From the NCBI GenBank assembly GCA_964623265.1, contig CAZUTK010000005.1, positions 746-64,745 on the forward strand: DNA of 64,000 nt, read 5' to 3'. The notes under the pieces were generated by a model that was given only the letters and a program-made list of their open reading frames with translations, ran no database searches and was not told where the DNA came from. This document shows, piece after piece, positions 10,737 through 60,512 of this stretch. The position numbers and the translations under genes are program-made. Position 1 is the stretch's first letter, and each line of letters begins with the position of its first letter. Source of the stretch: an uncultured bacterium. Its GTDB lineage: Bacteria; Electryoneota; B3-LCP.

Positions 10737-11312
10737 ATGGCATTGGAGAGAGTGAAAGATATCATGTTGTCTCTGGACGACTACGCCGTCGTGGGGATGG
10801 AAGCCACGATGGTGGATGCGTTGTGCGCTCTGGAGGCGGCGCAGAAGAAACTTCCGCCGGATCGCCAGCCCCATCGCGCCGTTCTGGTGGTGGACGACAA
10901 GGGCAACATCGTCGGGAAGTTGGGGCATCTGGCATTCTTGAAGGGACTGGAGCCGAAATACGACAAGATCGGCGACATCAACGTGCTTTCCCGCGTCGGA
11001 CTCAGCCAGGAATTCATCAATTCCATGCTGGACAATCTGAGTCTCTGGAAGGAGAGCTTTGAGGATTACGTGCAGCGGGCTCGCAGGACGAAGGTGAAAG
11101 ATGTGATGCACTCGGTTGTAGAGAGCATCTCAGAAGACGCGCCGTTAAGCGAAGCGGTGCATAAACTGGTCATGTATCAGACCCTATCCCTGCTTGTCAC
11201 TCGGGGCGAAAAGGTCGTTGGGATATTGCGGCTGTCCGATCTCTTTTCCGTGATCGCGCATATCATTCGGAAGAAAGTTGGCTGCGGTGAAGAAACAAGC
11301 CAGGAGAAGTGA
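10737..11312 (+). CDS. CBS-pair domain protein (stand-alone).
   Basis: Two CBS-like repeats across ~190 aa. No other domain is evident. Confidence 0.5.
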   Translation: MALERVKDIMLSLDDYAVVGMEATMVDALCALEAAQKKLPPDRQPHRAVLVVDDKGNIVGKLGHLAFLKGLEPKYDKIGDINVLSRVGLSQEFINSMLDNLSLWKESFEDYVQRARRTKVKDVMHSVVESISEDAPLSEAVHKLVMYQTLSLLVTRGEKVVGILRLSDLFSVIAHIIRKKVGCGEETSQEK

Positions 11313-11316
11313 CCCT

Positions 11317-15288: not shown

Positions 15289-16997
15289 GTCAACCTATGC
15301 CTTTCGCATCCGCGCAAAGAGACGATTCCGCCGCCGAGAAATCGGTGCACGGCGAACAGACGCGCTACCGTCGGCTGTGGTGGTATTCCGTGATCCTGAT
15401 GGCGCTGGTTTCGCTGACGCCGCTGGTCATCCTGACCTTCGTCAACATCCACCAGGCGCAGAAAGCCATCCGCGAGGAGATGCGTTTCCCCATCGCGCGG
15501 CTGTTGTCCAATACCAAGAAGGCGCTGGAGTTCGTGATTGCGGAGCGGAAATCCGCTCTGCGGCTGGTCATCAGCGAAAAAGCATATGAGGAGCTGGCGA
15601 GCGATGAGGGGCTGGCGCAGGCTTTCAATAACCTGAAGGAATCGTTCGGCGGGTTCGTGGATCTCGGGCTGGTGGATGCAGATGGCAATCAGAATTTCTA
15701 CGTTGGACCCTATGACCTGAAAGGCAAGAACTACCGGGACCAAGCCTGGCTGCACGAAGTGCGACTGCGCGACGTGTACGTCAGCGACGTCTTTATGGGC
15801 TTCCGGAATTTTCCTCACTTCATCATCGCCGTCAAGCAGAACTCCGCGCGTGGCGGATCTTACGTCCTGCGCGCGACGATTGATATGCACCTTCTCAACC
15901 AGCAGATCACCGCTCTGGATCTGGGACCTTCCAGCGACGTTTTCATCGTCAACGCCGACGGTATCCTGCAGACCAATTCCCGCTTCCACGGCAAGATTCT
16001 CGAACCCTGCACGATCCCGCTTCCCAAGTATTCCGACACCGAAATGATCCAGGAGTTTACCGAGAAGGGTCAATCTTTTCTTCTGGGCTACGCGTTCATC
16101 GAAAAATCGCCGTTCATTCTGATGATCATCCAGAATCAGAAGGATTTGATGCCGAACTGGCTCGCCCGCCGGCAGGATCCCTTCTGGTTTCTGGCGGGCA
16201 GCAGCGTTCTGATTTTGCTGGTTGTACTGGGGGTTTCCACCTATACGGTGCATCGGATCCGCAGCGCCGACATCCGCCGGGCGAAGGCGTTTCACAATCT
16301 GGAATATACGAACAAGATGGCGTCCATCGGGAGACTCGCCGCCAGCGTGGCGCATGAGATCAACAACCCCATCGCCATCATCAATGAGAAAGCCGGATTG
16401 CTGAAGGATATGGCGACCCTGACGCCTGATTTCACGCAACGCGAGAAGGTGCTGAAATTGTTGGATTCCATCCACAATTCGGTGGAACGTGTCAGCACCA
16501 TCACGCATCGTCTGCTGGGATTTTCCCGGCGGATGAACGCGCACATGGAGCTGATTGACCTGCCGTCTTTGCTGAAGGAAGTCCTGAGTTTTCTGGGCAA
16601 GGAGCTGAGCCATCGCAACGTTTCCGTCACCTTCGAGGTTCCGGATAATTTTCCGGCGGTGGAAAGCGACCGCGGGCAACTGCAGCAAGTGTTCCTGAAT
16701 ATCATCAACAATGCGATCGCCGCGATCAAGGAAGGCGGCTGGATCCGATTCACTCTGCTGGAGGTGGAGGCGGGCGGGGTGGCGGTGAAAATCTGCGACA
16801 ACGGCACAGGGATTTCCCCGGAGGATCTGAAACACATCTTCGAGCCTTTCTTCTCCACCAAGGGGGAATTCGGCACAGGACTGGGTCTTTCCATCACCTA
16901 TGACATCATCAAGAAGCTGGGGGGGGAAATTCAGGTGGAGAGTCAGCTGGGGAAGGGAACCTGTTTCACAATCTTATTGCCGCGTCAGAAGGCTTAA
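15285..16997 (+). CDS. Sensor histidine kinase with a Cache-like periplasmic domain; paralog of the 9025 kinase.
   Basis: 'ASVAHEINNPIAII' H-box, 'LNIINNAIAA...DNGTGI...GTGLGLSI' ATPase motifs, TM helices 'LWWYSVILMALVSLTPLVIL' and 'FWFLAGSSVLILLVVLGV'. GTG start overlaps the upstream stop. Confidence 0.8.
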   Translation: MSQPMPFASAQRDDSAAEKSVHGEQTRYRRLWWYSVILMALVSLTPLVILTFVNIHQAQKAIREEMRFPIARLLSNTKKALEFVIAERKSALRLVISEKAYEELASDEGLAQAFNNLKESFGGFVDLGLVDADGNQNFYVGPYDLKGKNYRDQAWLHEVRLRDVYVSDVFMGFRNFPHFIIAVKQNSARGGSYVLRATIDMHLLNQQITALDLGPSSDVFIVNADGILQTNSRFHGKILEPCTIPLPKYSDTEMIQEFTEKGQSFLLGYAFIEKSPFILMIIQNQKDLMPNWLARRQDPFWFLAGSSVLILLVVLGVSTYTVHRIRSADIRRAKAFHNLEYTNKMASIGRLAASVAHEINNPIAIINEKAGLLKDMATLTPDFTQREKVLKLLDSIHNSVERVSTITHRLLGFSRRMNAHMELIDLPSLLKEVLSFLGKELSHRNVSVTFEVPDNFPAVESDRGQLQQVFLNIINNAIAAIKEGGWIRFTLLEVEAGGVAVKICDNGTGISPEDLKHIFEPFFSTKGEFGTGLGLSITYDIIKKLGGEIQVESQLGKGTCFTILLPRQKA

Positions 16998-31739: not shown

Positions 31740-34700
31740 TCAACCGCGGATGGTGATGTTGACTCGGATGCCGAACTCTTGGAAGTTGGAATCGCCGGTT
31801 TTGCTCTTATTCGAACCATATTCGAAGTGCATTCCTCCGGTGACGGTGTTGGAAAAAGTATAGTCCAGACTGGGTTTGACCGACCAGGTTTTGTTGAAGT
31901 TGGTTTCGGTGAATTTGCCCGCCGCCTCGTTTTCCGTTCGGCTGTTGGACATATTGAACGCCAGAGCGAAGGTCGTGTTGTTCTTGAAGCGTTTGTTCTT
32001 GAAGGGCCAGACCGGAATAGGGATTTGAAACCCTGTCTTCATAGAATAACTGGCGCTTAACTGCAGATTCGATTGTTTGGTTCGCGATTTGGATGAAGTC
32101 GGGATCTTCGCCACCGATCCGGTTTCGGTCAAGTTGTATCTTAAATTGGCGGTGATGCCGCGCTTGAAGGTCATATTGATGCCCAGAAGCGGGCTGAAGT
32201 TGCGCGAATAGTCGTATTTGTTGACGTTTTCCTTCCGTTCCGTCCAGGTGGTGGTGCGCGATCCGCTGAAGGTGTTCTCGAGCGTCACGGTCTCGGCGAT
32301 TTTCTGGAATGCCGGGAACTTTTCCCAGCCGGACCAGGAGATAGACCACTCCGGGATGGGGATCTCGAAGACGTCAATGGAGTCGCCGCCGGTCTTAAAG
32401 AAATAGAGCTGGGATTCCGCGAAGGTGCCGTTGGTGCTGTTGGATTCGTTGCGGCTCCAGCGGTAGTTGTAATTCAACGAGATCTTGAAGTTTCGGGTGA
32501 AATCCAAACCCGATTTGAATTTATAATCGTCGCTGCGGGAGCGGGTGGAGTAGCCGGTGTAGAATTGGGCGGAATCAATCTTCGAATAGTCCCGCGAGTT
32601 CAACCCCAACTGATACCCCAGTCCGGCTTGGCCGTCCACCAGAGGATCAGACCAGTTGTTCTGCTGGGTGTAGTCCACGCGGATATCCCGCAGCCGCGTG
32701 ACCGTGTAACGCAGGGCGTACCAGAGGTCCTGTAGGGCGCTTTTTTCCTTCGGTTTGGCGATTTCGAGGAATTCCCGCGTCGTGGTGTCGGGTTCGGTTC
32801 CCCGCATGCTGGTGGTATCCACACGGGTGGAATCGTGTCCGGTGGTGTCGCCTGGGAGGGGCTGGAACTCGGGTGTCGGCGGGGGCTGGACCGAGGGTTC
32901 CATTCCCTTATCCGGCCGGCCGGGTTCGCGCTGATCCGGAGCACCCCGGGCGCCTGCCGCCGGTTCGGACGTGGGTTTTTTAAGGATCTGCGTCAGCTTC
33001 AGGGTGGCGGAAGCCGACAGCGAGGTGTTGTTCGAGATGGACTGTCCGCTGGAGGCGTAGGGCTGCTGCCAAGCCCAATGATAGCCGGAGCTGTAGCGTC
33101 CGTCCGTATCCAGCCAGGAGAAGAAGCGGGGTGTGTAGGATCCAGTCACCGTCTGATTGATGTCAATGTCCCGTTCCCAAGCCAGATCGCCGCGCAGGAT
33201 GTCGTCTAAGTCTTTTGGGTTGTCGGGATCCTTCAACAAATCCGCTTTGTGCGTGCGGTTGAAATCGAAGGTGAGGTTTTCGAAGGGGCGCCAGCCGCTG
33301 ACTAGACCCTTGTTGAGATAGAATGTATGGCTGTATTGCAATGTCCCGGCGCGCAGACGCCCCTGGCTGACCATTTCCGTGCCGGCGAGCGACAGGTTCA
33401 GCTTCGTGATCAGCCAGTAGAGCTTGGCATTGCTGTATTTGCGCAGCAGCGGCACGCTTCGCAGCCAGGTCAGGAAGGAGAGACTCGGGCGTCCGAAGGT
33501 GAGGTTATAGCCCAGGTCGGCGCTGTTGGTGGTCGAATGCTGATAAAGGGTGGTGGGGTTTGTGGATTCCTGTCGGGCGAAATCGTAGCCGGCGGAGAGC
33601 CGGTCCACGGTATATTTCAGGACCGGGTTCGCCGAGGGCATATTCTTGGAGATGTCCACTCCGGCGCCGAAATTGCGATTGAAGCTCTTGACCGTATCCA
33701 TCTGCGCCGCGTCGTTTTGATCAATCAGGATGTCGCTGTTGGGGAAGTAATAGGGGACGGTTTCCGATTGGGAGAAGTTGCCTGAGACGGGAATGGATAA
33801 TCCCCATTTGGGGTCGAAGACCTTCTGCAATTGCAGGGTTCCGGTGGCACTTCCGGAGAGCGAGTTCGCGCGGGTGCCCACGCGGGTGTTGACGTTGTGA
33901 AAATCGCCGTCTTTGATGTCCAGATTGCCGTGCAGCGTCAGCAGATCCGCCATAGTCAAGTCGGCGGAGGCGCGCGCAGCCCGCCCGATGTCCTTCTTGA
34001 CTTCGCTCACGCGCAGTTCGTCCAGCCAGATCTGCAAACCGTCCGTCGCCAGCACATCGCCGTCGCGCGGGATGATCCCCACCGTGAATTGGCGCACCTG
34101 GGAAATGGAGGGATTGCCCATCACCGCCAGAGAATCCGAACCGTTGATCAACACGGCGTAGCGCTGGTTAGGGTTGGTCCTCTCCAGCTTGATTTTCGTG
34201 AGTTCTTCGAGATCAATCTCGATGTTATTCCTGACATCCCAGCCTGGGTAGACGCGTTGGCGGTATTCGTAGTAGTTCCTTGTGGTGTCGGCTCCGAAGC
34301 GGAAGAACATCCAGATTTCCCGCTGGTCAAAGACCTCTTCGTTGAGGATGCCGCCGCCGTGCACGAACATCTTGAGCTTGCGGTATTCGAGCAGGTCGAA
34401 GGTGTCGTAGAGGCGGCGCACTACGACGCCGGCGCTGTCGCGGGGCAGATCGTTGATGCGCAATTGCAGCGATTGTTCCTGGCTGACGATGTCGGTGACC
34501 GGATCGCGGTAGCCGGCGACGCCGGGCGGGGCGATGTAGTAGGGGTTGTCGTAGGTGTTGATGACTTCCACCGAGACGCGCTCGTAGGCGCTGTCCGCGG
34601 GAGTGGTGACGGGGACGGCTTCCCATTCGTTTCCGACGATTTCGAGCGTGGCGATGGAGATTTCGTAGAGCGTGGAATCTTCGAAGCCATCCACCCAGAC

Positions 34701-37700
34701 GCGGGCGAATTCGATCTGAGTCAGACTGGGGCTGCCGATGGGCACGCCGGCTTCGATGGGGATGCGGTAGAGTTTCCAGTGTTTGGCGTTGGGCGGCGAG
34801 ACGAGATAGGAATCGAGTTGCCAGGAGCCGCCGGGCCGAAATCCTTCCCGCTGGGGATCCACCGTCGTTTCGGAGAGGTCTATCGTGTAGCGGAAGAAGT
34901 TGTTTTCCAGATCGAGGCTGTTGTTGCGGTTGATGTCTTCGGTATCCGGATAGCGCCCGCCTTCGTCGTTCTTGTTGTTTTCCGTGCCGTTGATCTGCCA
35001 GACGTTGTAGGGATCTTGGGGGGAGTACGCCCAGTCGTCGTTGGAGACGGGGTTGCCGGGCGAGTTCCAGCGGTCATTGGGATCGGTGCCAGCGACGCCG
35101 TCCAGACCGGTGTCTTCTCCGTCGTCGAGGAAGCCGTTGCCCCAGAGGAGCCCTTCCAAGGGCTTGTCTTCCGTGTCCAGCACATTATTGGGGATGACGT
35201 CTTCGCTGATCTTGCCCAGATCAATGTGCAGCTTGCCTTTCACATCGTACTTATTCCCCTGATTGACTTTCAGCATCACCTCGATGTATTTGGCGCGCTG
35301 TTGATCCGCGTAACCCGCGGAGAGCGCTTTCATCACGCCGTTCCAGGACTGCGCGTACAACGGCTGCTTATTGTAGAAATAATTGCTGTCCGGCGAAGTC
35401 GGGATGAAGTAGAAAGAGAGCACGTGGGTTCTCTGGGCGACGTTGGCGTTGGTGGGGCGGTTGGGCCAGATGTCTTCGATGGCGACCTGGTCGAAAGGAT
35501 TGAACCAGGCGAACTTGCCGAGCCGCTTTCCGGCGATTTCTCCCGCGGGGTAGGATGCCTGCGTCCACTGCCGGCGCATAATGCCCAGCGGCGTCGTCTT
35601 CTTGATGGATTCGAAGTCATCTACGTACGCCACGCCGTCCGGGTCTCCGGTCGCCTTATTGTCCAGGGAATTGGGGTTGGGATGCACCTGCGCGTATTCC
35701 ACTTCGACCGTGAAGCGCGAAGGGGCTTCGGTTTCGATCAGGGGGAGGCGGTCCACGGCGGAAGTCAGGAATTTCGGCTGGAAGACCAGGCGGGTGTTGA
35801 CGTCCCAGAGGAAATTGCGCAGCGGTTCGTTGCCGACTTTGACCCGATCCTGCAGCGGGCGTTCGTTCAGGTAGAGCGCCGTGGCTCCGATGAAGGATTG
35901 ATCCCAGAGCGCGTATTCTCCTCGCACGCCTAGGAGGGTCTTCTTGTCCAGTTGGAACAGTTCGCCGGATTCGTACAGGATTTCCAGATTGGCGGAAGGC
36001 GAGAGCGCCGCTTCGTTCAGGATCGTCAGGGTGCCGGAGTAATAATCAATGACGTAATCCGTGCCTTTCTGCAGCTTGCGCCCGCCCAGAGAGACTTCTT
36101 CGGACCCTTCCAGGACATTGAATCCGAGCTGGTAAATCGCCTGGACGCTCTTGTAGTCCACCTTGATCTTGAAATTCGAAGGATAAACCACGGTCGAGTT
36201 GTAGATCGCAGGGATCTTCAGACTGTCCGGCAGAGACTGTGAATAAGGCGCCGGCGACGGAGTGCCGCCGCCCAGTGGAACGAGATAGTAGCCTTCCGGA
36301 TCGAAGGGCTGCAGGTCGGGGAAGATCAGTTCGCCGTACCCGTAGCGAATCAGATTGGGATTGTCGTCAATTTTGCCGTCCGGTTGGAGTTGGCCGGTCT
36401 CGTTGCGCGTATCCAAGCCGAAGAGTGTGAGCAAAGTGGTGGGTTCTCCCTGGTAGGGGAGCGTCTCGATTTCGGAGACGCCGGACGGCTGATAGACGAT
36501 CTTCAGATTGAAGCCGTCCTTTTCGATGTTCACCCCGCCCAGGCTGTACACGTGCCGCCAGGCTAATTTATAGGTGTCGTCCGTGGGCAGAGGATTTGGT
36601 GGGCGCAGGAGTTTCAGGATCGCCGTGGAATCCATCGAGGTGGAGGGATTCAGCGTCCCAAAGGTTTCGCCGCTCTGAGTCTTATAGGCGATCGCCAACA
36701 CGTCGCTGGGCGTCAGCGGCGAATTCAACCGCAGGTAGCCCAGTTCCGTGTCGAGGTAGTACTGGGATCGGTCCAGCGGGACGAAGTTGCCGGGCTGGAA
36801 ATTGCGGTCGTTGAGCAGACTGTCGGCGAGCAGGCTTTCGATGTTGGATTTCGTGTAGAAGCTGGAGTTGACGAGGGCGGAGGTGTCGTTGACCGCCCAG
36901 GCGTAGATCAGATCGGGCGGGAGCGTGCCGGATCCGAGGGTGAATTTTTTATAGACGTAAAACTGGGTGGGATCCACTTTCCAATTCGGGTCGGCGACGT
37001 GCTCCATATTGGTGTTGAAGTACTTGTACTGCTCGCGGAAGCGTTTGTCCAGAAAGTAGTAGCGCCCCACGGATGGCTGGGTCACGTCGAAGGACTGGCT
37101 GGACTGCTGGGCGCCGCCGGTGATGGTCAGCTTGTTCTTCTGCCCCTTTTCGAGACTGGCGATGGTGGTCAGCTTCAAGGCTCCGACCTTGATGTCGGAT
37201 TTCAATCCAAAGAGCCCCTTGTTCTGGCCGGAAAAAGTCGCCAGCTGGGTGCCGGCGAGCTGCATGCTGATGTTGCCGGCTTCGATCTTCTGGATGATTT
37301 CGTCTTCGTAGCCGGTGTAGGTCAGGCGGATGGAGTTTTCGAATTCGAACATCCGTTCGGAATCCTGATCCACTTCGACCGAAACTTTATCGCCCACCTC
37401 CCCCGTGATTTTGAACCGCTGGGTCTGATCGATGTGGAAGCTGTAGTCCGTGCTCTGACCCGTCACCGTCGCCACCTGGGATCTGCCTTCCCGGCGGAAT
37501 CCGCCCTGAATGTTGATGTTGCCGGAAATCCGCAGTCGCACCCGGTCGCCGCCGAAAATCTTGTTGAAGGTCTTCGATTTGATCTTGAAGGGGATCTCGA
37601 TGGTCAGCGCTTCCTTGCCGGCGCCGGCCGCCGCTTTCTGAAGTTCCCGCAAGGCGGATTCGCGGAAGGCTTTGATGAAATCCTGGCGGAGCCGGAAGGC

Positions 37701-38090
37701 GATATATTCATCCATCGTGAAGACGACCGGCTGGAGCCAGTCGTGATCCAGCAGGGTGCGCCGGATCTTGACCGTCTGATAGGTGGAATCTATCTCCGTG
37801 AAGGTCTTGAATTGAGGCGCGTCGGTCTTCAGGATCGCCGCGGTGGTGTCCGACAGGAGGGCGATCGAGAAGGAGAAGGGGCGGTTCCAGTTTCTCAGAT
37901 CTATTGCTCCGCTGGTTTTCAGATCGAGGCGCAGGGAGAAGGAGGGTGCGGAAGTCGAATCCTGAGCGGCGGCGCCGCGGATGGTGAGAAGCAGACAAAG
38001 CGTGAGCAGGGGCGCGAGCGGAACGATCCACAGAGGATGTGGGACGGGGTGCTTTTGACGGTTGCTGGCGACGATTGCTTCGGGAATCAC
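31740..38090 (-). CDS. sprA: SprA (Sov)-like giant outer-membrane T9SS translocon / gliding-associated cell-surface protein.
   Basis: 2116 aa with N-terminal signal peptide. Uniformly beta-rich, aromatic/Asn/Thr/Gly-rich composition throughout. The size class and sequence character are those of the SprA family. Several T9SS cargo genes occur in the same window. Confidence 0.55.
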   Translation of the reverse strand: MIPEAIVASNRQKHPVPHPLWIVPLAPLLTLCLLLTIRGAAAQDSTSAPSFSLRLDLKTSGAIDLRNWNRPFSFSIALLSDTTAAILKTDAPQFKTFTEIDSTYQTVKIRRTLLDHDWLQPVVFTMDEYIAFRLRQDFIKAFRESALRELQKAAAGAGKEALTIEIPFKIKSKTFNKIFGGDRVRLRISGNINIQGGFRREGRSQVATVTGQSTDYSFHIDQTQRFKITGEVGDKVSVEVDQDSERMFEFENSIRLTYTGYEDEIIQKIEAGNISMQLAGTQLATFSGQNKGLFGLKSDIKVGALKLTTIASLEKGQKNKLTITGGAQQSSQSFDVTQPSVGRYYFLDKRFREQYKYFNTNMEHVADPNWKVDPTQFYVYKKFTLGSGTLPPDLIYAWAVNDTSALVNSSFYTKSNIESLLADSLLNDRNFQPGNFVPLDRSQYYLDTELGYLRLNSPLTPSDVLAIAYKTQSGETFGTLNPSTSMDSTAILKLLRPPNPLPTDDTYKLAWRHVYSLGGVNIEKDGFNLKIVYQPSGVSEIETLPYQGEPTTLLTLFGLDTRNETGQLQPDGKIDDNPNLIRYGYGELIFPDLQPFDPEGYYLVPLGGGTPSPAPYSQSLPDSLKIPAIYNSTVVYPSNFKIKVDYKSVQAIYQLGFNVLEGSEEVSLGGRKLQKGTDYVIDYYSGTLTILNEAALSPSANLEILYESGELFQLDKKTLLGVRGEYALWDQSFIGATALYLNERPLQDRVKVGNEPLRNFLWDVNTRLVFQPKFLTSAVDRLPLIETEAPSRFTVEVEYAQVHPNPNSLDNKATGDPDGVAYVDDFESIKKTTPLGIMRRQWTQASYPAGEIAGKRLGKFAWFNPFDQVAIEDIWPNRPTNANVAQRTHVLSFYFIPTSPDSNYFYNKQPLYAQSWNGVMKALSAGYADQQRAKYIEVMLKVNQGNKYDVKGKLHIDLGKISEDVIPNNVLDTEDKPLEGLLWGNGFLDDGEDTGLDGVAGTDPNDRWNSPGNPVSNDDWAYSPQDPYNVWQINGTENNKNDEGGRYPDTEDINRNNSLDLENNFFRYTIDLSETTVDPQREGFRPGGSWQLDSYLVSPPNAKHWKLYRIPIEAGVPIGSPSLTQIEFARVWVDGFEDSTLYEISIATLEIVGNEWEAVPVTTPADSAYERVSVEVINTYDNPYYIAPPGVAGYRDPVTDIVSQEQSLQLRINDLPRDSAGVVVRRLYDTFDLLEYRKLKMFVHGGGILNEEVFDQREIWMFFRFGADTTRNYYEYRQRVYPGWDVRNNIEIDLEELTKIKLERTNPNQRYAVLINGSDSLAVMGNPSISQVRQFTVGIIPRDGDVLATDGLQIWLDELRVSEVKKDIGRAARASADLTMADLLTLHGNLDIKDGDFHNVNTRVGTRANSLSGSATGTLQLQKVFDPKWGLSIPVSGNFSQSETVPYYFPNSDILIDQNDAAQMDTVKSFNRNFGAGVDISKNMPSANPVLKYTVDRLSAGYDFARQESTNPTTLYQHSTTNSADLGYNLTFGRPSLSFLTWLRSVPLLRKYSNAKLYWLITKLNLSLAGTEMVSQGRLRAGTLQYSHTFYLNKGLVSGWRPFENLTFDFNRTHKADLLKDPDNPKDLDDILRGDLAWERDIDINQTVTGSYTPRFFSWLDTDGRYSSGYHWAWQQPYASSGQSISNNTSLSASATLKLTQILKKPTSEPAAGARGAPDQREPGRPDKGMEPSVQPPPTPEFQPLPGDTTGHDSTRVDTTSMRGTEPDTTTREFLEIAKPKEKSALQDLWYALRYTVTRLRDIRVDYTQQNNWSDPLVDGQAGLGYQLGLNSRDYSKIDSAQFYTGYSTRSRSDDYKFKSGLDFTRNFKISLNYNYRWSRNESNSTNGTFAESQLYFFKTGGDSIDVFEIPIPEWSISWSGWEKFPAFQKIAETVTLENTFSGSRTTTWTERKENVNKYDYSRNFSPLLGINMTFKRGITANLRYNLTETGSVAKIPTSSKSRTKQSNLQLSASYSMKTGFQIPIPVWPFKNKRFKNNTTFALAFNMSNSRTENEAAGKFTETNFNKTWSVKPSLDYTFSNTVTGGMHFEYGSNKSKTGDSNFQEFGIRVNITIRG

Positions 38091-38281
38091 GAGAGCAGAG
38101 CCCTTCCTTTAGGGCAGTATGAAACGCGAACTTTCCCTTTGAATTTCGGGCGGTTTGATTTATATTTGGGAACAAAGCACTCGCAACGAGAGTCGAACCC
38201 TCGGAAGTTTGAACTATGGCATGGCGGTTTTTGATCCGAAGAAACTGGATCTTTCGCTAACCGGATCTGGTGGAGAAGCCG

Positions 38282-48258: not shown

Positions 48259-48700
48259 TGTGAATTGCGTCGAGAAATGGGATATAATCTCTTGCATCTT
48301 CGAAACGCACTGAAGGGGGAAAAAACGGCGGATCTTCACGGAAAAGCCCTAAAGGATTGATAAAATTCAACTACACCTTGCTTCAAGGATGATTTGCAAT
48401 TAAAAACGATTCTGATGGTATTCCGGTTGATGATTCTGAAAAGCTGGATGGACGGATTCTCCACTAGTCGGTCTGATCTCGCCGAATAGGCAGCCGGCTC
48501 CGATGCCTCGATGGAAAAAATCAACGGTAAGCCGCAACGATTCTGCAAAAAAGGCGTATTTTTATCGAAACCGGATGATGCCGGCGTTTGGCAGTGCGGA
48601 CACCCGGCTAAGCGAATATGAAATATTGGGATTTGATGAGCCTGTTCACACTCAAACGAGTCACGTCGCGTATTTCAAACGCTTTAGAAACGGAGAAAGA

Positions 48701-50491
48701 ATGCCAGGTCTGTTGGGATTGAAGAGCCTGGATGGGCGACCGGCGGAGCCGGAGGTATTTGAGGCGGTTGTTCAGGAGGTTTTATCTCGAGGACCGTTCC
48801 GGCTCGATTCCTTCGCGGCTTCGGAGGGCACCTTCAGAGCGGCTCGGGCGCATCAGGGGATATTCAATCCTGCGCCTCAGCCGATCTTTTCTGAAGACCG
48901 GGATATTGCGTTGTTCTTGAGCGGTGAGGTGTACAATGAGGATTTCGATGCGAACGATCAGCCCCGCTCGGTCCTGCGAGCCTATCAGCGGGAAGGCGCC
49001 GGACTCTTTTCGAGGATCAACGGTTCTTTCGCTCTGGCGATCTGGGAAGCGAAGAAGCAGCGCCTGACGCTGGTGGCGGATCGCGTGGCGTCGGTTCCCG
49101 TCTATTACACCATTCATCGGAATCTATTCGCATTTTTTCCGAATTTGAAGCCGTTTCTGACGTTGCCCGGCTTTCAGCCGAAAGTGGATCCGCTGGGGGT
49201 GGAGAACTTCCTTTCCAGCGGCTTCATGATCAACGGGACGACGCTGTTAAGCGGGATCCGCAGCCTGCGCCCGGGCGAAATGCTGGTGGTGGAAGGAAAT
49301 CGGATCCGAATCGAGCGTTACTGGCATTTTTCGTTTCCGGCGCAGCGCGATCTGCGCGATCCGCGGGAAATCGAACCGGAATTCTCCCAGGTGCTGCGCA
49401 GCGCAGTCCGAAGGCAATCGCGCCATCTGGATTCGTACGCGGTAACGCTCAGCGGAGGGTACGATTCGCGCTCCATCCTGTTCTATATGAATATGGAAAA
49501 CGGCGCAAGACCGCTGCGCACCGTCACCTGGGGCGTAGATGAACGGGTTCCGGACAGCGACGCCTGGATCGGGCGGCGGCTGGCGGAACATTTAGGGACG
49601 AATCACACCTTTCTGACTTTGCGGGGGGAGATGCTTCCGGATTTTCTGGAAGAGTTTGTGCGCTACGATGAGGGGCGCACGGATGCTGTGGGGAATTATC
49701 CGGAAGGATTGCGCATTTTCTGGCAATTGCGCCACGATTTGGGGATCCGAGTGCTGATCCGGGGGAATGAGATTTTCGGCGCTCGCGGCAAGGTGTATCG
49801 GGAGAAGGACACCATGCACACCGCCTTTATGGACGTCTTGAGCTGTTATCCGAAGAGCTTCCGATACCTGAAGCCTTCGGTTTATCGAATGCTGGAAGAG
49901 ATCGGGCAGCAGCAGATGAGAGCGTTGCACGATGCGTGTCCGTATGCGGATCCCACAGATCGAAAGGATTATTTCTTTATGACGCTGCGCTGTTCCGGGT
50001 ATCAGAGCCCGTTGACGCAGCTGAAACGACAGGTCATCGAAGAGCGCAATCCCTATCTGGATAATGAGGTGGTTGACTATGTGACGCGCATTCCGGCGCC
50101 GCTGAAAATCTGGAAGAACTTTTTTATGCAAACGGTGCGGAATCAAATTCCCGGCTTTACGGATGTGGGATTCTCCAAGGTTGTAAGCTTGGTGGACTGG
50201 GACGCACGTTTTCGCAGCGACCGTCGTTTGCAGGATATGACTCGGCGCATTCTAATTGAAAAGCATAACGGATTCGATGAAATCATAGATTCAGTGAAGC
50301 TGCGCGATTTTGTCGAACGCTCTTTTCGGCCGGTGAAAATCAACCGCAAATCCCTGGGGCGCAGGATCATTAGGAAAGTGCGGCAGCGGTTCGACCGCTA
50401 TGATTTGGAATTCAGCCTGGAGCTCTTCCGGCTGATGATCCTGAAGATCTGGGCGGATCAGTTTTTACGGGGCGATTTCAAGATTGATTGA
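48701..50491 (+). CDS. Asparagine synthetase B-like ATP-pyrophosphatase that lacks the glutaminase nucleophile Cys (lasso-cyclase / beta-lactam-synthetase-like).
   Basis: Starts 'MPGLLGL' where class-II amidotransferases have 'MCG'. PP-loop 'LSGGYDSRSI'. Paralog of 50665..52491. Start chosen at ATG 48701 with RBS 'ggagaaag'. Confidence 0.6.
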   Translation: MPGLLGLKSLDGRPAEPEVFEAVVQEVLSRGPFRLDSFAASEGTFRAARAHQGIFNPAPQPIFSEDRDIALFLSGEVYNEDFDANDQPRSVLRAYQREGAGLFSRINGSFALAIWEAKKQRLTLVADRVASVPVYYTIHRNLFAFFPNLKPFLTLPGFQPKVDPLGVENFLSSGFMINGTTLLSGIRSLRPGEMLVVEGNRIRIERYWHFSFPAQRDLRDPREIEPEFSQVLRSAVRRQSRHLDSYAVTLSGGYDSRSILFYMNMENGARPLRTVTWGVDERVPDSDAWIGRRLAEHLGTNHTFLTLRGEMLPDFLEEFVRYDEGRTDAVGNYPEGLRIFWQLRHDLGIRVLIRGNEIFGARGKVYREKDTMHTAFMDVLSCYPKSFRYLKPSVYRMLEEIGQQQMRALHDACPYADPTDRKDYFFMTLRCSGYQSPLTQLKRQVIEERNPYLDNEVVDYVTRIPAPLKIWKNFFMQTVRNQIPGFTDVGFSKVVSLVDWDARFRSDRRLQDMTRRILIEKHNGFDEIIDSVKLRDFVERSFRPVKINRKSLGRRIIRKVRQRFDRYDLEFSLELFRLMILKIWADQFLRGDFKID

Positions 50492-50664
50492 CGGAGATTT
50501 TGAATTAAAGAAATGATAGATAAGGGGCTGGAGAAGTACCGGTTACTGTTGCGGGCGTTGAATTGTTGAACAGGCTCGCCGCGATGAGAATGTATTGATT
50601 TATGTATTGTGAAGTTAGTGCGGCGAGTAGAGGTAAGTGAATCCTTTAGGAGGGTGAGGAGTAG

Positions 50665-52491
50665 ATGCCCGGACTTCTAGGGCTCCTGCAGTTTGGGGGA
50701 AAATCAGCGGAAGATGTTGGATTTCAGGATTGGCTTCGTGATTTCACCGGCAAATACGGCGGAGCAGTGGATCAGTTGTCCTCACGGGACGGCACTTTCA
50801 CGGCGGCGCACATCCGCAGGATCGGATTCAGCGCGCCGACGCATACCGCCGTTTCCGAGGATGGACGAACTCTTCTGATCTGGGATGGGGAAGTCTACAA
50901 CGAGGAGTTCCGATCGCCGGATTCGACCCGGACACTCCTCGATGCCTTCGCCTGCGAGGGTGCGGGGCTGTTCGCGCGCTTGAACGGCAGCTTTGCGATG
51001 GCGTTCTGGGAGGAAGAGCCGCGACGACTCACCTTGGCAGCAGACCGCGCCGCATCCCTGCCGATCTATTACGCGAAAGACCGCGATCAATTCACCTTTT
51101 CCGGACGTCTCAAGCCGTTTCTCCGCCTGAACCACGGCCGATCCGGCATCGAGCTCGGCGCTCTGGCGGATCTCCTCACCAACGGCTATCTATTGCAGGG
51201 GAGGCTCTTATTGGCAGGGGTGCGGGTGCTGGGCCCGGGGCAGGTGCTGCGCGTCCAAGATCAACAGGTTGAGGTGACGAACTACTGGCGATATGAGTTT
51301 GAACCACAACCGGAATCCGCGGACGAGCGACGCTTCGCGGAGGAACTGGCGCGGCTGATTCGGGAGGCGATTGAGCGCAGGCTATGCGGCGAGGGCGACT
51401 TCGGCGTGCTGCTAAGCGGCGGGTACGATTCGCGCGTCATCGCCGGATTTTTGCACCAAATGCGGCGCAACGGATCTATTCGCACCATCACCTGGGGGGA
51501 AGATGAGAGCACACCGGAAACGGACGCCTTCATTTCGCGAAGAATCGCCGAGCATCTGCGGGCGAAGCATACCTTCTTTCGGTTGAACGCGTCCGCTCTG
51601 CCGCATCATTTCCGCGATTTTGTCATCCTGGATGAAGGGCGCACCGACGCCGTGGGCAATTATCCGGAATCCCTGCATATCTTTGAACGGATTCGCAACG
51701 AACTGCGCCTTAACGTTCTGTTTCGCGGAGATGAGTGCTTCGGCTGGCGGGAGGATGTCTCCAGCGAATTAGAAGCCCTGCACTCGCTCAATATCCACGA
51801 TCTGCAGCACCTGCCGGATGCTTACCTCTTTTTGACACCGGTCTTCCGCAAAAGATTGGTGGAAATCAGCCGCGCGCAGCTGCAGAACCTGTGTGCGGAA
51901 TGTCCCTACGACCATCTGCACGACCGCAAGGATTATTTCTATTTCACTCAGCGGCTCTTCGGCTATCTGAATCCGCTCTCGCAGCTGAAACAGCAGGTGA
52001 TTGATCTTCGCAACCCCTATCTGGATAACGACTTGCTCGATTTTATTCGGCGGATGCCGCGGCAGATGCGGCTGGGCAAGAAGTTGTTCAAAGCCGCGGT
52101 GCGGGCGATGTTTCCTGAATTCGAACCCTTCGGCATTGCCAAGAATTCAAATTTGATTGACTGGCATGATCGTTTGGGGGTGGATCCCGCGTTGCAGGAG
52201 TATGTGCGGCAGGTATTGCTGGGCCGAGAGAACGGCTTGGATGAGGTGTTGGACCGCGGCAAGCTGGAGCGTTTCATCGCGGACAGTTTTTCCGAAGCAG
52301 CGAGAACCGCGGGAAATCAGCCGGCGGGCCGAGTTCCCATTGTCGCCCGCGTGCGCCGCAAAGTCCGGCGCCAGTTCGGTTACTTCGAGCTGCGCCTGGA
52401 GATTCAGCTGTTCCGCCTGATGTTATTGAAGCTCTGGGTGGATGAATTCTTGAACGGGGAATTTCGTTGGAATGAATCCGAAATCGGATGA
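50665..52491 (+). CDS. Second asparagine synthetase B-like paralog, also without the N-terminal Cys.
   Basis: Starts 'MPGLLGLLQFGG'. PP-loop 'LSGGYDSRVIAGFL'. Collinear with the upstream paralog along its full length. RBS 'ggaggg'. Confidence 0.6.
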   Translation: MPGLLGLLQFGGKSAEDVGFQDWLRDFTGKYGGAVDQLSSRDGTFTAAHIRRIGFSAPTHTAVSEDGRTLLIWDGEVYNEEFRSPDSTRTLLDAFACEGAGLFARLNGSFAMAFWEEEPRRLTLAADRAASLPIYYAKDRDQFTFSGRLKPFLRLNHGRSGIELGALADLLTNGYLLQGRLLLAGVRVLGPGQVLRVQDQQVEVTNYWRYEFEPQPESADERRFAEELARLIREAIERRLCGEGDFGVLLSGGYDSRVIAGFLHQMRRNGSIRTITWGEDESTPETDAFISRRIAEHLRAKHTFFRLNASALPHHFRDFVILDEGRTDAVGNYPESLHIFERIRNELRLNVLFRGDECFGWREDVSSELEALHSLNIHDLQHLPDAYLFLTPVFRKRLVEISRAQLQNLCAECPYDHLHDRKDYFYFTQRLFGYLNPLSQLKQQVIDLRNPYLDNDLLDFIRRMPRQMRLGKKLFKAAVRAMFPEFEPFGIAKNSNLIDWHDRLGVDPALQEYVRQVLLGRENGLDEVLDRGKLERFIADSFSEAARTAGNQPAGRVPIVARVRRKVRRQFGYFELRLEIQLFRLMLLKLWVDEFLNGEFRWNESEIG

Positions 52492-52556
52492 GAAACGAAT
52501 CCGGCGGGCGCATCGCCCGCCGGTTTTTTCTCGGGGTCACCGCAAATTGAACGGCA

Positions 52557-53486
52557 TCATTCTGGTTTTCCGTGTTCGAATCTGTAATTAACGCCCAGAG
52601 CGAGCGTCTGGCGGAATCGCCCGCCTGAAGCGATCTGTTTGTCGTACAGCAATTGCCAGGCGAGGCTGACCTGCACGATTTTCGACACCTGGGCGGAAAG
52701 GATGTTGTCCCAGTTGGCGTCCACCTGCTTCCAGTAATCCTCGTAGGGCGTCCCTTCGAGCGTATCCGCTTCGGAATAGAAGAGAGCCTGGAAGATCGTC
52801 AGCTTGGTGGTGTACGTCAGGGTGTTGCTGAGCTTCGCCATCCAGTCCGTCACCCATTCGATGCCGCCGTCGTTGGTGGTGGTGATTTCGGTTTCTTCTG
52901 GGGTGATGCTCAAGACGTCCTTGTTGATCCGCTGACGCAGACCGAACCCGAGGCGGGTCGCGGCTTTGCCAGAAGCGTTCTCGTACAGCGTGCGGGCGAT
53001 GCCGGCGCTTTCCGTCAGATCAATCGGGTTGAGGTAGCGCTTCACTTGCGGGATAGAGGCATCCAGAAACTGCGACTCGAAGGTGCCCGCGGCGTAGGGG
53101 TCCACCCAGGCGCCCAGCGTCAGTTTCCAGACGGTGTCGAAGCGGATTCGATCCGTGGACTTGATCGGAGACGCCCACAATTTGGTCTCCTGGGATTGAC
53201 TGTGGGTCTGTCCGAAGGCGAGTTTGAGTTCGTTTTCCACCCGGATTTTCGGATGGATCTGCTTATTGGCGACGCCGTGGATGTTCGCCGCCCAGGTCAG
53301 CGAACCGACATCGCCGCCCGCCCAGTTGTCGGAGTAGGCGGATTGCGCCAGCGAAAAGTTCGCTTCCAGGAGCGTGTGCCAGAGGCTGGCGTCGGCGGCG
53401 CGAGCTGCGGTGAGTGAACCACAAGCAAAGACGATCATCCAGGCGACGATGTATTGCCAAGCGATGGGGTGTGTCTTGATCTTCAT
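52557..53486 (-). CDS. Putative outer-membrane beta-barrel protein (DUF3078-like).
   Basis: Signal peptide 'MKIKTHPIAWQYIVAWMIVFACGSLTAARA'. Trp/Tyr-rich alternating strands. Confidence 0.35.
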   Translation of the reverse strand: MKIKTHPIAWQYIVAWMIVFACGSLTAARAADASLWHTLLEANFSLAQSAYSDNWAGGDVGSLTWAANIHGVANKQIHPKIRVENELKLAFGQTHSQSQETKLWASPIKSTDRIRFDTVWKLTLGAWVDPYAAGTFESQFLDASIPQVKRYLNPIDLTESAGIARTLYENASGKAATRLGFGLRQRINKDVLSITPEETEITTTNDGGIEWVTDWMAKLSNTLTYTTKLTIFQALFYSEADTLEGTPYEDYWKQVDANWDNILSAQVSKIVQVSLAWQLLYDKQIASGGRFRQTLALGVNYRFEHGKPE

Positions 53487-53535
53487 TTTAATCCTCTCCG
53501 GAAAAATCATCGGTGATTGCGGGCGGTGCTCAAAC

Positions 53536-53991
53536 CTATGCGGCTTTTAGATCTGAGGTGCAGTGGGGGCAGCGCACGGCTTGAACGGCGATTTTCGAGA
53601 AACAGAAGGGGCAGTCTTTGGTGTTGGGCGCCGCCGGGGCGGCTTCCTTGCGCTTCAGTTGATTGAGTGCGCGGATCAACAGGAACACGGCGAACGCGAC
53701 GATCAGGAAGCTGATGACGGTGTTGACGAAGGCGCCGAAATTCAGCGTCACGGCTCCGGCGGCTTTGGCGTCCGCCAGAGAGATGTAAGGACCGGCGGAA
53801 GCGGTGCCGCGCTTGAGGACGATGAACAGGTCGCTGAAGTCCACGTTGCCCAGCAGCAACCCGATGGGAGGCATAATGACGTCGTCCACCAGGGATTTGA
53901 CGATGGTGCTAAAGGAGGCGCCGATGATGATGCCGACCGCCATATCCACGACGTTGCCGCGCATGGCGAATTCTTTGAATTCTTTCAACAT
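53536..53991 (-). CDS. mscL: Large-conductance mechanosensitive channel MscL with a C-terminal Cys4 zinc-ribbon-like extension.
   Basis: '[24 protein letters not shown]...[11 protein letters not shown]' is near-identical in pattern to the E. coli MscL N-terminus. The extra C-terminus is '[18 protein letters not shown]'. Confidence 0.85.
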
Positions 53992-57860: not shown

Positions 57861-60512
57861 TTATTTCATCAGCACCATTTTCCTCACCGCTTTATACTCC
57901 CCCGCCGCCAGCCGCGCAAAATAGACGCCCGAAGGCAGACCGGATCCGTCGAAGGTGACTTCGTGCGTTCCCGCCGTCCGCAGACCCTTCACCAGCGTCG
58001 CCACAGTTCTGCCGCCGACGTCGAAGATTTCGAGGTTCGTTCGCGCCGGGCTGGGTAGGGTGAAAGAGAAGCGAGTGCCGGGATTGAAAGGATTCGGGAA
58101 ATTCTGACTCATAAAGAAGCGCGCGGGAAGATTTTGTCCGCCGGGTGATTCGATGCCGTAGAGTTCCAGCCAGTTCAGGATGGCGGAAAGGAAGTCGGTT
58201 CGCGAGTTGAATCCGGCGGCGGAGTCGTTGATGGCTTCGAAGCCGAAGGAGAGGAAGACGACTGCTCCATGAGCGTCGCAGTGCACGCCCGCCAGCCGGT
58301 CCGGCTGCGACGCATCGTACACCAGCATGGCTGCGCCTTCGCCGGCGGCGGCGACGACGTCCTGCGAGGTCTGGTTGGCGGCGCCGCCCGATCCCAGAAT
58401 GATGAAGTTCATTCCGGCGGAGATGGGGTCGCCCTCGATCCCCTGCACGCTGAAGTCGCCGGCGTTGTCCTCTACGAACGCGACGCCCAGATAGTTGTCC
58501 AGGAAGGGGTCGCTGCGTTCGTGCATTTCCCGCGCGATGTTTTGACCGGATAGAATCAGACGCCCGCCGCCGTCCAGAAATTGCGTCAACGCCGCCGAAG
58601 CTTCCGGCGGGAAGACGTTTTGCTGAGCGGTACCTGTGTACCAGAGGACGAGGGGATAATGGGACAAAATCTCGGCATCCGGCACTCCACTGCGCGCCGC
58701 ATTCCAGACTTCCCAAGTGCGCCCCAGCGCATCCAGCGGGACGGTGTAGTAATAATAGACTTCTTCATCCTGCCCCTGGTCGGCGTTGACGATCAGGATC
58801 TCGCCTCGTCCGAGCTGGATTTCCAATTTCTGCAGATAATCGTAGCCGGTGTTATCCGTGAAATGCAGATCCAGTTCCGCGCGGCGATATCCGCTGAAGC
58901 CGGCAGAGAGCGCAAGCGAGAAGGGCGATGCGGCGTTGTTCGCGGTTTGTTGGAGGGCAAGATCGCCGAAGTCCGCGGAGGAATGAAGGATCATCACGTC
59001 GGGATCCGAGCAGGTAAGTTCGGCGTGGAGGGCGCTGAGATTCTGCGGAGAGCGATTCTGTAGATAGACGATCAGATCGGCGGATTCGCCGGCGGAGAGT
59101 CTTCCGCTGGAATCCGCGTCCAACAGATCGAAGGATTGAACGCCGCAGGTCCAGTCGCAGGCTGCGCCGACGTTCAGACGCAGCGCTTGAGGCCAGTAGG
59201 GGTTGCCCGTCAGGATGGTATCGCACGTCGCCGTCAGGCGCGCGCCGACTTCATCTCCAGTCAGCAGCGGGTAGAGGCTCTTCAGCAGTCCGGCGGTGCC
59301 CGCCGCCACCGGGCACGCCATCGAAGTGCCGCTCATATTGCCGTAGCCGCCGTTGTTGGTGGTGGAGAAGATCCCTTCACCCGGCGCGAAGAGGTCCACC
59401 CAGGCGCCGTAGTTGGAGAAATCCGCCATATGATCCTGCGCGTTGGTGGCGCCGACGGCGATGACGTGTTGATAGCCGGCGGGGTATTGGATCTGCGAGG
59501 TGGATTCGTTGCCCGCCGCCGCCACCGAGACGACGCCGCGGTTGAAGGCGAAGTTGAGCACCTGCTGAGTGTAAGCGGAAAAACCGGATCCCCCGAAGCT
59601 CATCGAGATCACATCGGCACCGTTTTCCGCGGCGTACACGGTGGCTTCGTTGTAGTAGGCGATCAACCCCTGGCCGCTGACGGAAAGATATCCCGCCCGC
59701 AGCGCCATGATCTTCACCCCCCAGCCCACACCGGCGCCGCCCAGGGCGTTGTTGGATCGCTGAGAAGCATCGCCCGCGCAATGAGTGCCGTGGCCGTCGA
59801 AATCGGAGGGATCGTTGTCCGGGGTTTCTCCGTCTTCGCCGGGCCAAACCGCCGCCTGCCCCACGTTCACCCAGTCCCATCCCCAGAAGTCGTCAATATA
59901 ACCGTTGGCATCGTCGTCCAGCCCGTTCCAGTCCGAAGGATCCACGACGCCGTTGCCGTTCAGATCTTCGCCGGGATTGACCCAGATGTTGGGGGCGAGG
60001 TCGGGATGATCGTACATCACGCCGGTGTCTATGATGCCCACGACCGCGAAGGGCGCCGATCCGGAAGCCCACCACCAAGCGGTTTCGCAATCGGTGATGG
60101 TCAAGTGATATTGGGAGGGGCGGTATGGATCGTCCGCTGAACGGGAGGCGAAGACCGGCAGCGCCCAGCGCGGTTCCGCCCAGAGGATGCCAGGGATGCT
60201 TTGCAGCGACCGGCAGAGTCCTGGTATGTCGGCGTCCGGAGGCAGGAAGGCTTCCCAGATGCGCGCGAGGTCGCGCTCGAACCCGTCTTCAGATCGGGCG
60301 AACTGCGGGTAAATCCGCCGCAGATTTTCCGGTCCGACGGAAAGAGGCGCAGCCGCCCATTCGACCAGGTGGGAGGGATCGGCGAGGTCTTCCGCACAGG
60401 CGAAGATGATTCTTCCGGGGAGGTAGGATTGTCCATTCGAAGTGGGGAGATTCGCGCAGAATGCGGGCAGCGAGCAGAGAAGGATGGAAATGGCGAAAGC
60501 AATCGTTTTCAT
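57861..60512 (-). CDS. Secreted subtilisin-like S8 serine peptidase with T9SS C-terminal domain.
   Basis: Signal peptide. Asp 'GIIDTGV', His 'HGTHCAG', Ser 'GTSMACP'. CTD 'FPNPFNPGTRFSFTL...GVYFARLAAGEYKAVRKMVLMK'. Confidence 0.8.
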   Translation of the reverse strand: MKTIAFAISILLCSLPAFCANLPTSNGQSYLPGRIIFACAEDLADPSHLVEWAAAPLSVGPENLRRIYPQFARSEDGFERDLARIWEAFLPPDADIPGLCRSLQSIPGILWAEPRWALPVFASRSADDPYRPSQYHLTITDCETAWWWASGSAPFAVVGIIDTGVMYDHPDLAPNIWVNPGEDLNGNGVVDPSDWNGLDDDANGYIDDFWGWDWVNVGQAAVWPGEDGETPDNDPSDFDGHGTHCAGDASQRSNNALGGAGVGWGVKIMALRAGYLSVSGQGLIAYYNEATVYAAENGADVISMSFGGSGFSAYTQQVLNFAFNRGVVSVAAAGNESTSQIQYPAGYQHVIAVGATNAQDHMADFSNYGAWVDLFAPGEGIFSTTNNGGYGNMSGTSMACPVAAGTAGLLKSLYPLLTGDEVGARLTATCDTILTGNPYWPQALRLNVGAACDWTCGVQSFDLLDADSSGRLSAGESADLIVYLQNRSPQNLSALHAELTCSDPDVMILHSSADFGDLALQQTANNAASPFSLALSAGFSGYRRAELDLHFTDNTGYDYLQKLEIQLGRGEILIVNADQGQDEEVYYYYTVPLDALGRTWEVWNAARSGVPDAEILSHYPLVLWYTGTAQQNVFPPEASAALTQFLDGGGRLILSGQNIAREMHERSDPFLDNYLGVAFVEDNAGDFSVQGIEGDPISAGMNFIILGSGGAANQTSQDVVAAAGEGAAMLVYDASQPDRLAGVHCDAHGAVVFLSFGFEAINDSAAGFNSRTDFLSAILNWLELYGIESPGGQNLPARFFMSQNFPNPFNPGTRFSFTLPSPARTNLEIFDVGGRTVATLVKGLRTAGTHEVTFDGSGLPSGVYFARLAAGEYKAVRKMVLMK

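Follow-up and report, generated by a model that had tools for sequence, protein, structure and literature searches.

What can two adjacent asparagine synthetase B (AsnB)-like proteins make when neither has the cysteine of the glutaminase site? The question is raised by a 64-kb stretch of DNA from an uncultured bacterium of the Electryoneota (GenBank assembly GCA_964623265.1, contig CAZUTK010000005.1), hereafter called the window. Two genes, which we call A and B, lie there in tandem:

48701-50491, plus strand: gene A, a 596-residue Cys-less AsnB-like protein with the start MPGLLGL; the "Asn-type" paralog
49451-49471 and 49760-49780, plus strand: motifs of gene A, the ATP-pyrophosphatase loop (PP-loop) SGGYDSR and RGNEIFG, respectively
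50665-52491, plus strand: gene B, a 608-residue Cys-less AsnB-like protein with the start MPGLLGL; the "Asp-type" paralog
51415-51435 and 51724-51744, plus strand: motifs of gene B, the PP-loop SGGYDSR and RGDECFG, respectively

We propose, at a probability of roughly 45%, that A and B are a glutamine-independent, ATP-dependent pair that forms an amide on an envelope glycoconjugate.

A Cys-less branch of the AsnB fold

Are A and B real genes with real starts? A previous reading of this DNA, made from its letters alone (below, the sequence-only reading), had described two tandem MPGLLGL open reading frames, each with SGGYDSR and its own ribosome-binding site. Both are confirmed as full-length AsnB-fold paralogs, 40% identical across their whole length (E 9e-153), and both match GATase_7/GATase_6 and Asn_synthase in Pfam. 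Gene B is preceded by a strong AGGAGG ribosome-binding site, with an in-frame TAG just 5′ of its start (50662-50664), and gene A has GGAG at 48692-48695 ahead of MPG. An in-frame extension of A is possible from an ATG at 48503 (66 codons):

48503-48700, plus strand: in-frame open stretch 5′ of gene A, without coding constraint and probably untranslated

The comparison is with the nearest relative, L007, whose proteins are 81-87% identical to those of the window (L-numbers denote related loci from other genomes). The extension is 29% identical, with a ratio of nonsynonymous to synonymous substitution rates (dN/dS) of 0.77, as against 0.09 for the core of A, 0.14 for B and 0.15 for the adjoining gene for a protein with a domain of unknown function, DUF3078. 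This absence of constraint, together with GGAG, argues that MPG is the real start of A. A and B are real genes under strong purifying selection. An alternative start or a sequencing error that conceals an N-terminal Cys, a doubt that the sequence-only reading had raised, is ruled out by the TAG and ribosome-binding site at B, the neutral extension of A and the family-wide Pro-2; the cysteine is really missing.

How far does this loss extend? Among 113 full-length representatives of clusters at 50% identity, Pro occupies position 2 in 81 and Cys in none, and relatives across many phyla start MPG[LI]xG, which points to Pro-2 as a trait of the family. The Asn-74 oxyanion-hole column holds Ser in A, Asp in B and His, Tyr or Asp in relatives, with Asn in only a few B copies, and no equivalent of Asp-98 is conserved. 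Neither A nor B has the Cys-1 nucleophile, Asn-74 or Asp-98 of asparagine synthetase B: the N-terminal domain, of the N-terminal nucleophile type, retains its fold, and its catalytic residues are gone (Cys-1 replaced by Pro, the Asn-74 and Asp-98 equivalents lost). The replacement of Cys2 by Pro, which the sequence-only reading took to preclude the Cys-1 glutaminase mechanism, is thereby borne out.

The rest of the scaffold is preserved, as Pfam and the AlphaFold2 model of B agree with the PP-loop and GATase-II-like N-terminal fold described before. The model (predicted local distance difference test 91.6, predicted template modelling score 0.92) has the full two-domain AsnB fold. Its best matches in the PDB are, in order, TsnB9 (7ylz; template modelling (TM) score 0.75-0.79), E. 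coli AsnB and human ASNS, beta-lactam synthetase (beta-LS), and carbapenam synthetase (CarA), and a sequence search with the family profile ranks the PDB proteins in the same order. Invariant across 49 diverse members are the PP-loop residues S251, G252, G253 and D255, and further W277, D287, H302, R354, G355, K442, P451, D454 and K472. The SGGxDS of asparagine synthetase B is present in both A and B, and the aspartate-binding residues of AsnB are unconserved. In these alignments, the ATP-binding core is conserved and the acyl-adenylate site remodelled.

A and B fit an unnamed Cys-less branch of AsnB, defined in this analysis and called here MPG/SGGxDSR after its motifs: an M-P-G-[LI]-x-G start, LNGSF, SGG[Y/x]DSR, TxxWG, RG-DExFG with a three-residue deletion, RKD and RNPxLD. 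All of them occur in A and B, save that A has RGNE. The branch contains at least 150 clusters (50% identity) at E<1e-97 and spans hundreds of genomes in many phyla, with no curated model and no characterised member; every curated family model scores A and B well under its cut-off. Cys-less AsnB-fold enzymes are known for beta-lactams, lasso peptides and C-terminal nitriles, and another such branch is now defined.

How near does this branch stand to characterised proteins? The hydroxyamidotransferase TsnB9 is the best match in sequence (profile E 5e-40) as well as in fold, and shares the two-domain architecture and the PP-loop. However, it starts MCG and has SGEaaDE, whereas A and B have Pro-2 and a deletion that removes the Glu; the identity is 19%, and no trichostatin-type context exists at A/B. 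AsnB and human ASNS (1ct9, 6gq3) share with A and B the fold, the PP-loop SGGxDS, the adenine-binding region, DExFG and the K472 column, which we take, from motif comparison rather than an alignment to 1ct9, to be the equivalent of AsnB Lys-429. In contrast, Cys-1, Asn-74, Asp-98, Glu-348 and the Asp-binding residues are missing in A and B, and Lys-449 is unconserved in the family. The general asparagine synthetase model TIGR01536 gives 117.2 and 124.1 bits, below its threshold of 267.1. With this score, the deleted Glu-348 and the unconserved Asp-binding residues, the earlier judgement that these are not asparagine synthetases stands.

The WbpS/WbqG proteins (TIGR03108) resemble A and B in their AsnB fold, and they act in surface-glycan pathways, as relatives of A and B also lie in polysaccharide loci. 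They are glutamine-dependent Cys-1 proteins, however, whereas A and B have no Cys, reach 109.7 and 105 bits where the model requires 816.9, and have no glycan locus in the window. The two genes are accordingly not mis-started members of the exosortase- or exopolysaccharide-associated AsnB families, an outcome that had been named as fatal to the sequence-only reading.

Do A and B then make a natural product? As lasso cyclase, as peptide C-terminal amidase or nitrile synthetase, or as cyclase of the beta-lactam/carbapenam type, they would belong to a pathway for a peptide synthesized on ribosomes and modified post-translationally (RiPP) or another natural product, the role that the sequence-only reading favoured. 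Beta-LS, CarA and the lasso cyclases share the AsnB fold and the loss of the glutaminase Cys, which is typical of such enzymes, and form amides via acyl-adenylation; moreover, asparagine synthetase-like enzymes amidate peptide C-termini (PMC13060819). The models for lasso cyclases (NF033535; 92.6 and 72.4 bits, cut-off 525) and macrolactam cyclases (NF033561; 43.6 and 63.8 bits, cut-off 300) match weakly and partially, at scores 5- to 7-fold under the curated cut-offs and over only residues ~90-315. The fold is nearer to TsnB9/AsnB than to beta-LS/CarA. Beta-lactam and carbapenam synthetases are marked by a Tyr-348/Glu-382 dyad and Lys-443. The position of beta-LS Tyr-348, a residue that Raber et al. 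reportedly described in 2009, falls within the segment deleted in the A/B family.

The surroundings speak against a natural product as well. The window contains no RiPP, nonribosomal peptide synthetase, polyketide synthase or ATP-binding cassette (ABC) exporter genes. No precursor peptide, transglutaminase-like B-type protease, PqqD or RiPP recognition element, ABC exporter or tailoring gene, several of which the sequence-only reading had named as worth seeking on the contig beyond the window, was found in the window or in the eight related loci. The small open reading frames of the leader are pseudogene debris, no conserved short one travels with the A-B pair, and the distant members of the branch lie in polysaccharide loci, not in biosynthetic gene clusters. 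We therefore regard a natural-product role as very improbable, and the window offers no RiPP or antibiotic gene cluster to be counted.

Polysaccharide loci and the proposed amide-forming reaction

Where do the relatives of A and B occur? The distant MPG members (28-36% identity) are found in polysaccharide loci. The locus in Anaerolineae has genes for glycosyltransferases of family 2 (GT2) and, several times, family 4 (GT4), together with Wzy_C, PMT_2, heparinase and sulfatase genes; a gammaproteobacterial one has GT4 and a formyltransferase/deacetylase; and in another, GT4 and methyltransferase genes stand beside two further AsnB homologues. At ten further MPG loci, with 76 neighbours, the list of families is headed by GT1/GT4, Wzx-type flippases, Wzy_C, additional Asn_synthase proteins, methyltransferases, sulfatase and polysaccharide deacetylase. 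A far larger sister group, with the start MSKIIYxC, is represented in cultured Bacteroidota, in Geothrix, in Chromohalobacter and elsewhere. At ten of its loci, 21 of the 77 scanned neighbouring genes encode GT1/GT4 glycosyltransferases, and sugar-nucleotide enzymes are present too. SGGYDSR is found in 20/20 of the sister-group loci listed, as the scan pattern demanded this motif.

Since polysaccharide loci house the wider family as well as its sister group, a role on an envelope glycan is likelier for A and B than one in secondary metabolism. AsnB-type enzymes of this kind are known: WbpS and WbqG amidate uronic acids, to uronamides, in the O-antigen and in the anchor sugar of the T9SS (type IX secretion system) (PMC7468200). 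In the literature we found nothing specific on a Cys-less AsnB family in glycan loci. The MPG or MSK genes of polysaccharide loci are often accompanied by an extra Asn_synthase-family paralog (for example, at 1-1730 and 11842-13797 of L012), and the extra paralogs of the sister-group loci also match GATase_6/7. This hints at the paired use of one glutamine-dependent and one glutamine-independent enzyme.

How might the reaction proceed? First, ATP would adenylate the carboxylate of the substrate. Second, the acyl-AMP would react with free ammonia, or with an amine not derived from glutamine, to give the amide. B is the presumed catalytic subunit, given the Asp in its RG-DE motif and the basic residue at the Lys-449 position, and A would be a specialised partner, either the other subunit of a heterodimer or the enzyme of a second step on a different substrate. 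The likeliest substrate would be the carboxylate of a cell-envelope glycoconjugate, as suggested by the Wzx/Wzy-type loci of the family and its sister group and by the location of the close clade among envelope genes. If the product is a glycan amide, formed with ammonia, an amine or an amino acid, the pair would provide an enzyme for a class of modification with poorly known genetics.

Why are there two copies? Asn is present at position 356 in 12/12 A-type proteins; Asp occupies it in 12/12 B-type, 9/9 other close, 51/51 distant and 4/4 canonical AsnB sequences. At each tandem locus, the copy with RGNE precedes the one with RGDE (the window, L001, L007, L010, L011, L013, and L015 with L016, the last two being separate contigs of one metagenome-assembled genome (MAG)). 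The B-type copies combine Asp-356 with a basic residue at position 493, the Lys-449 position. A, which is more constrained than B (dN/dS 0.09 and 0.14), is a specialised variant and not a decaying copy, and this fixed Asp-to-Asn paralog makes subunit specialisation a concrete question that can be tested. In human ASNS, Asp-367 binds the substrate amino group, the E364A, E364Q and D367A variants have no activity, D367N retains part of it, and Lys-466 (AsnB Lys-449) is essential (PMC6748925). By analogy, the fixed Asn of A would be the natural equivalent of human D367N. We also considered Asp-356 as a Mg ligand and gave this up, as the equivalent human Asp-367 contacts the amino group of the substrate and the D367N variant is just partly impaired (PMC6748925).

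Several observations weigh against glycan amidation by A and B. First, the HMMER alignment places R354-G355-D356-E357 onto E. coli AsnB S346-G347-(E348-G349-S350)-D351-E352, and the resulting three-residue deletion removes Glu-348 (human Glu-364) throughout the family; the Lys-449 column, although Lys in A and B, is variable across the family. As both Glu-348 and a conserved Lys-449, hallmarks of asparagine synthetase B, are missing, the chemistry may be non-canonical or absent. The sequence-only reading had left the integrity of the synthetase site (ATP-binding Ser/Asp, Lys) to be checked: the PP-loop is kept, the Lys-449 column holds Lys in A and B but varies in the family, and Glu-348 is deleted. 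Second, the clade-specific changes of L326 to R and GN331-332 suggest, from the alignment, that the substrate differs from that of the polysaccharide-locus relatives. Third, UDP-sugar dehydrogenases are not among the top neighbour families of the MPG or sister loci, so that a uronic-acid substrate has no specific support. Finally, neither the window nor the surroundings of the close-clade homologues contain a glycosyltransferase or sugar-nucleotide gene; the earlier remark that no obvious exopolysaccharide genes lie around is true for all 64 kb.

Might A and B have no catalytic activity at all? A pair of pseudoenzymes that bind ATP and serve a structural or regulatory purpose would account for the missing equivalents of Glu-348 and of a conserved Lys-449, the dead glutaminase site and the D-to-N change in A. 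This explanation seems unlikely, however: the PP-loop and ~18 further positions do not vary between phyla, dN/dS is ~0.1, the biosynthetic polysaccharide loci are typical of enzymes, and the B-type proteins keep both Asp-356 and the basic residue 493.

A bolder proposal would make the whole MPG/SGGxDSR branch a new class of AsnB-fold ligases that use neither glutamine nor the canonical Glu. Pro-1 or a partner would deliver an amino acid or amine, A and B would form a heteromer in which A is the Asp-to-Asn variant, and the product would be a decoration or anchor joined through an amide to an envelope glycoconjugate of T9SS-bearing bacteria. We consider this combination doubtful, and return to amide formation by the A/B pair as the preferred reading for the genes of the window.

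Operon, leader and neighbouring genes

How are A and B transcribed, and what lies upstream of them? Three elements lie around the unit:

48229-48253, plus strand: intrinsic-terminator hairpin of the upstream C25 peptidase/T9SS cargo gene, kept in L007 and L009; left boundary of the A-B unit
48388-48459, plus strand: decayed remnant of a third AsnB-like copy, encoding DDLQLKTILMVFRLMILKSWMDGF, like the C-terminal helix of A and B
52501-52523, no strand assigned: GC-rich hairpin that serves as a bidirectional terminator, located between B and the DUF3078 gene convergent with it, with 10 G-C pairs and T-runs on both strands

A and B are a two-gene operon. The two terminators bracket them and none lies between them. 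A precedes B in 6 lineages; elsewhere, the two genes overlap or are separated by short gaps (for example, a 4-nt overlap in L001). The remnant gives 54% identity over 24 residues in tblastn (E 4e-4, in a small database), and a longer one, of 38 residues (E 1e-11), lies at 7971-8117 of L001. The number of AsnB-like copies varies among the loci, with three intact in L013 and one in LCP-89 (L003). By these matches, the leader of the window holds the C-terminal end of a lost third AsnB-like copy. The ~530-bp upstream region has no Rfam match to a leader RNA or riboswitch, and an inspection made partly by eye showed no convincing sigma-54 or sigma-70 promoter upstream of A. What had been read as a leader region of 530 bp is no regulatory leader; it consists of the terminator of the upstream gene followed by pseudogene debris.

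The genes on either side of the operon are as follows:

44015-48172, plus strand: C25 peptidase of 1385 residues, bearing a C-terminal sorting domain for the T9SS and encoded directly upstream of A-B
52557-53510, minus strand: DUF3078 protein (Pfam match) with a signal peptide and a 12-stranded outer-membrane beta-barrel, convergent with B
53536-53991, minus strand: MscL, co-directional with the DUF3078 gene

The window is an ordinary piece of chromosome, with HrcA, DnaJ, KsgA, MgtE, two-component systems, an aldehyde dehydrogenase and a Mo-hydroxylase. PADLOC gave no match that would indicate membership of an anti-phage defence system. The close relatives were recovered from MAGs that carry the labels LCP-89, Zixibacteria, Calditrichaeota or simply "bacterium", and their AsnB-like proteins are 37-81% identical to those of the window.

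Does the DUF3078 protein work with A and B? By a hidden Markov model, it is encoded directly downstream, by a convergent gene, in 8/8 lineages of the close clade; the distant loci all lack it. MscL or MscS usually comes next. The DUF3078-MscL/MscS pair is also found without AsnB-like genes, in Zixibacteria-like MAGs, and the greatest similarity (56-86% identity) is shown by those DUF3078 orthologues that adjoin AsnB-like genes. A fold search with the DUF3078 model returned generic 12-strand barrels only. The protein was therefore rejected as a functional partner: the pair also occurs alone, the orthologues are the most similar ones, the barrel is generic, and inherited synteny may explain the arrangement. 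The DUF3078 neighbourhood is weak evidence of function.

The mechanosensitive channels bear on a further explanation, in which the AsnB-like proteins are ammonia-dependent asparagine synthetases, or carry out the amidating step for an osmolyte amide resembling N-acetylglutaminylglutamine amide. MscL or MscS adjoins in most loci, and TIGR01536 and TIGR03104 give generic matches. However, TIGR03104 scores 100-106 bits against a cut-off of 570, the TIGR01536 scores given above are also too low, the AsnB Asp-binding region is unconserved, and an ngg-type partner is absent. The DUF3078-Msc operon also occurs where AsnB-like genes are lacking, and the family is rare and patchy, unlike a housekeeping enzyme. 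Such a role is hardly probable.

Is the pair instead linked to protein secretion? A and B might make or alter an amide-containing linker or anchor for T9SS cargo, like WbpS/VimA in Porphyromonas, or modify the cargo precursors encoded upstream. The same-strand upstream neighbour encodes T9SS cargo in 8/8 lineages (the C25 peptidase here, FG-GAP or other proteins elsewhere), these cargo proteins have a common C-terminal module of ~220 residues, including the C25 peptidase of the window, and the translocon SprA/Sov is encoded 10 kb away. In addition, the anchor sugar of P. gingivalis requires an AsnB-type amidotransferase (PMC7468200). Against this, cargo makes up ~10% of the genes of the window (4 of ~42), so that adjacency is weak evidence, and the block may be inherited synteny. 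The terminators also part A-B from the cargo gene, no wbp or vim genes are nearby, and A and B fall outside TIGR03108. We consider the link to secretion unlikely.

The T9SS genes themselves merit description. The window encodes the outer-membrane translocon SprA/Sov (31740-38090, minus strand; 2116 residues; TIGR04189, 886 bits), whose presence marks the organism as T9SS-bearing and of the Fibrobacteres-Chlorobi-Bacteroidetes type. Several T9SS-tailed proteases accompany it; the four T9SS-tailed proteins are a C13 peptidase (33-2675), a 331-residue protein (38270-39265), the C25 peptidase (44015-48172) and an S8 subtilase (57861-60512). The C-terminal module of the C13 and C25 peptidases (~220-250 residues) is common to the FG-GAP cargo of related loci and exceeds the ~75-residue sorting domain. 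An identification of the C25 peptidase as PorU was discarded, as NF033707 gives 61 bits against a cut-off of 420.

Two unusual gene fusions lie further upstream, both on the plus strand. At 11278-13389, one protein joins a response-regulator receiver with a Na+/sulfate (DASS) symporter, and its gene adjoins that of a dCache histidine kinase (9025-10707). At 14029-15288, a cytidylate-kinase-like domain is fused to a receiver, next to another dCache histidine kinase (15285-16997).

What are the FG-GAP genes that precede the AsnB-like genes in related loci? They encode FG-GAP/VCBS proteins with a T9SS tail (~530 residues), in one to three tandem copies per locus, and span the following regions:

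L001, 5853-7832
L003, 3882-5504
L011, 3143-8070
L013, 1062-6097
L015, 3021-6556

A single in-frame TGA with a Cys codon right after it (...SYG-U-C-IGATPRIVDW...) interrupts 10/10 copies, and gene callers annotate each gene as two open reading frames. A hairpin with two compensatory pairs starts 10 nt downstream of the TGA. The genes are preceded by a tRNA-Sec (Rfam RF01852, 65-67 bits) in L001 (5218-5310), L011 (2977-3069) and L013 (674-766), and by selD (TIGR00476, 356 bits) in L001 (4215-5204) and L003 (2429-3418). The window has neither a copy of the FG-GAP/T9SS TGA gene nor a tRNA-Sec, and we found no paper that describes these genes. From their sequences, the encoded proteins look like selenoproteins that share a U-C motif and are secreted by the T9SS; a functional tie between them and the A/B pair would belong to the bolder, doubtful proposal above.

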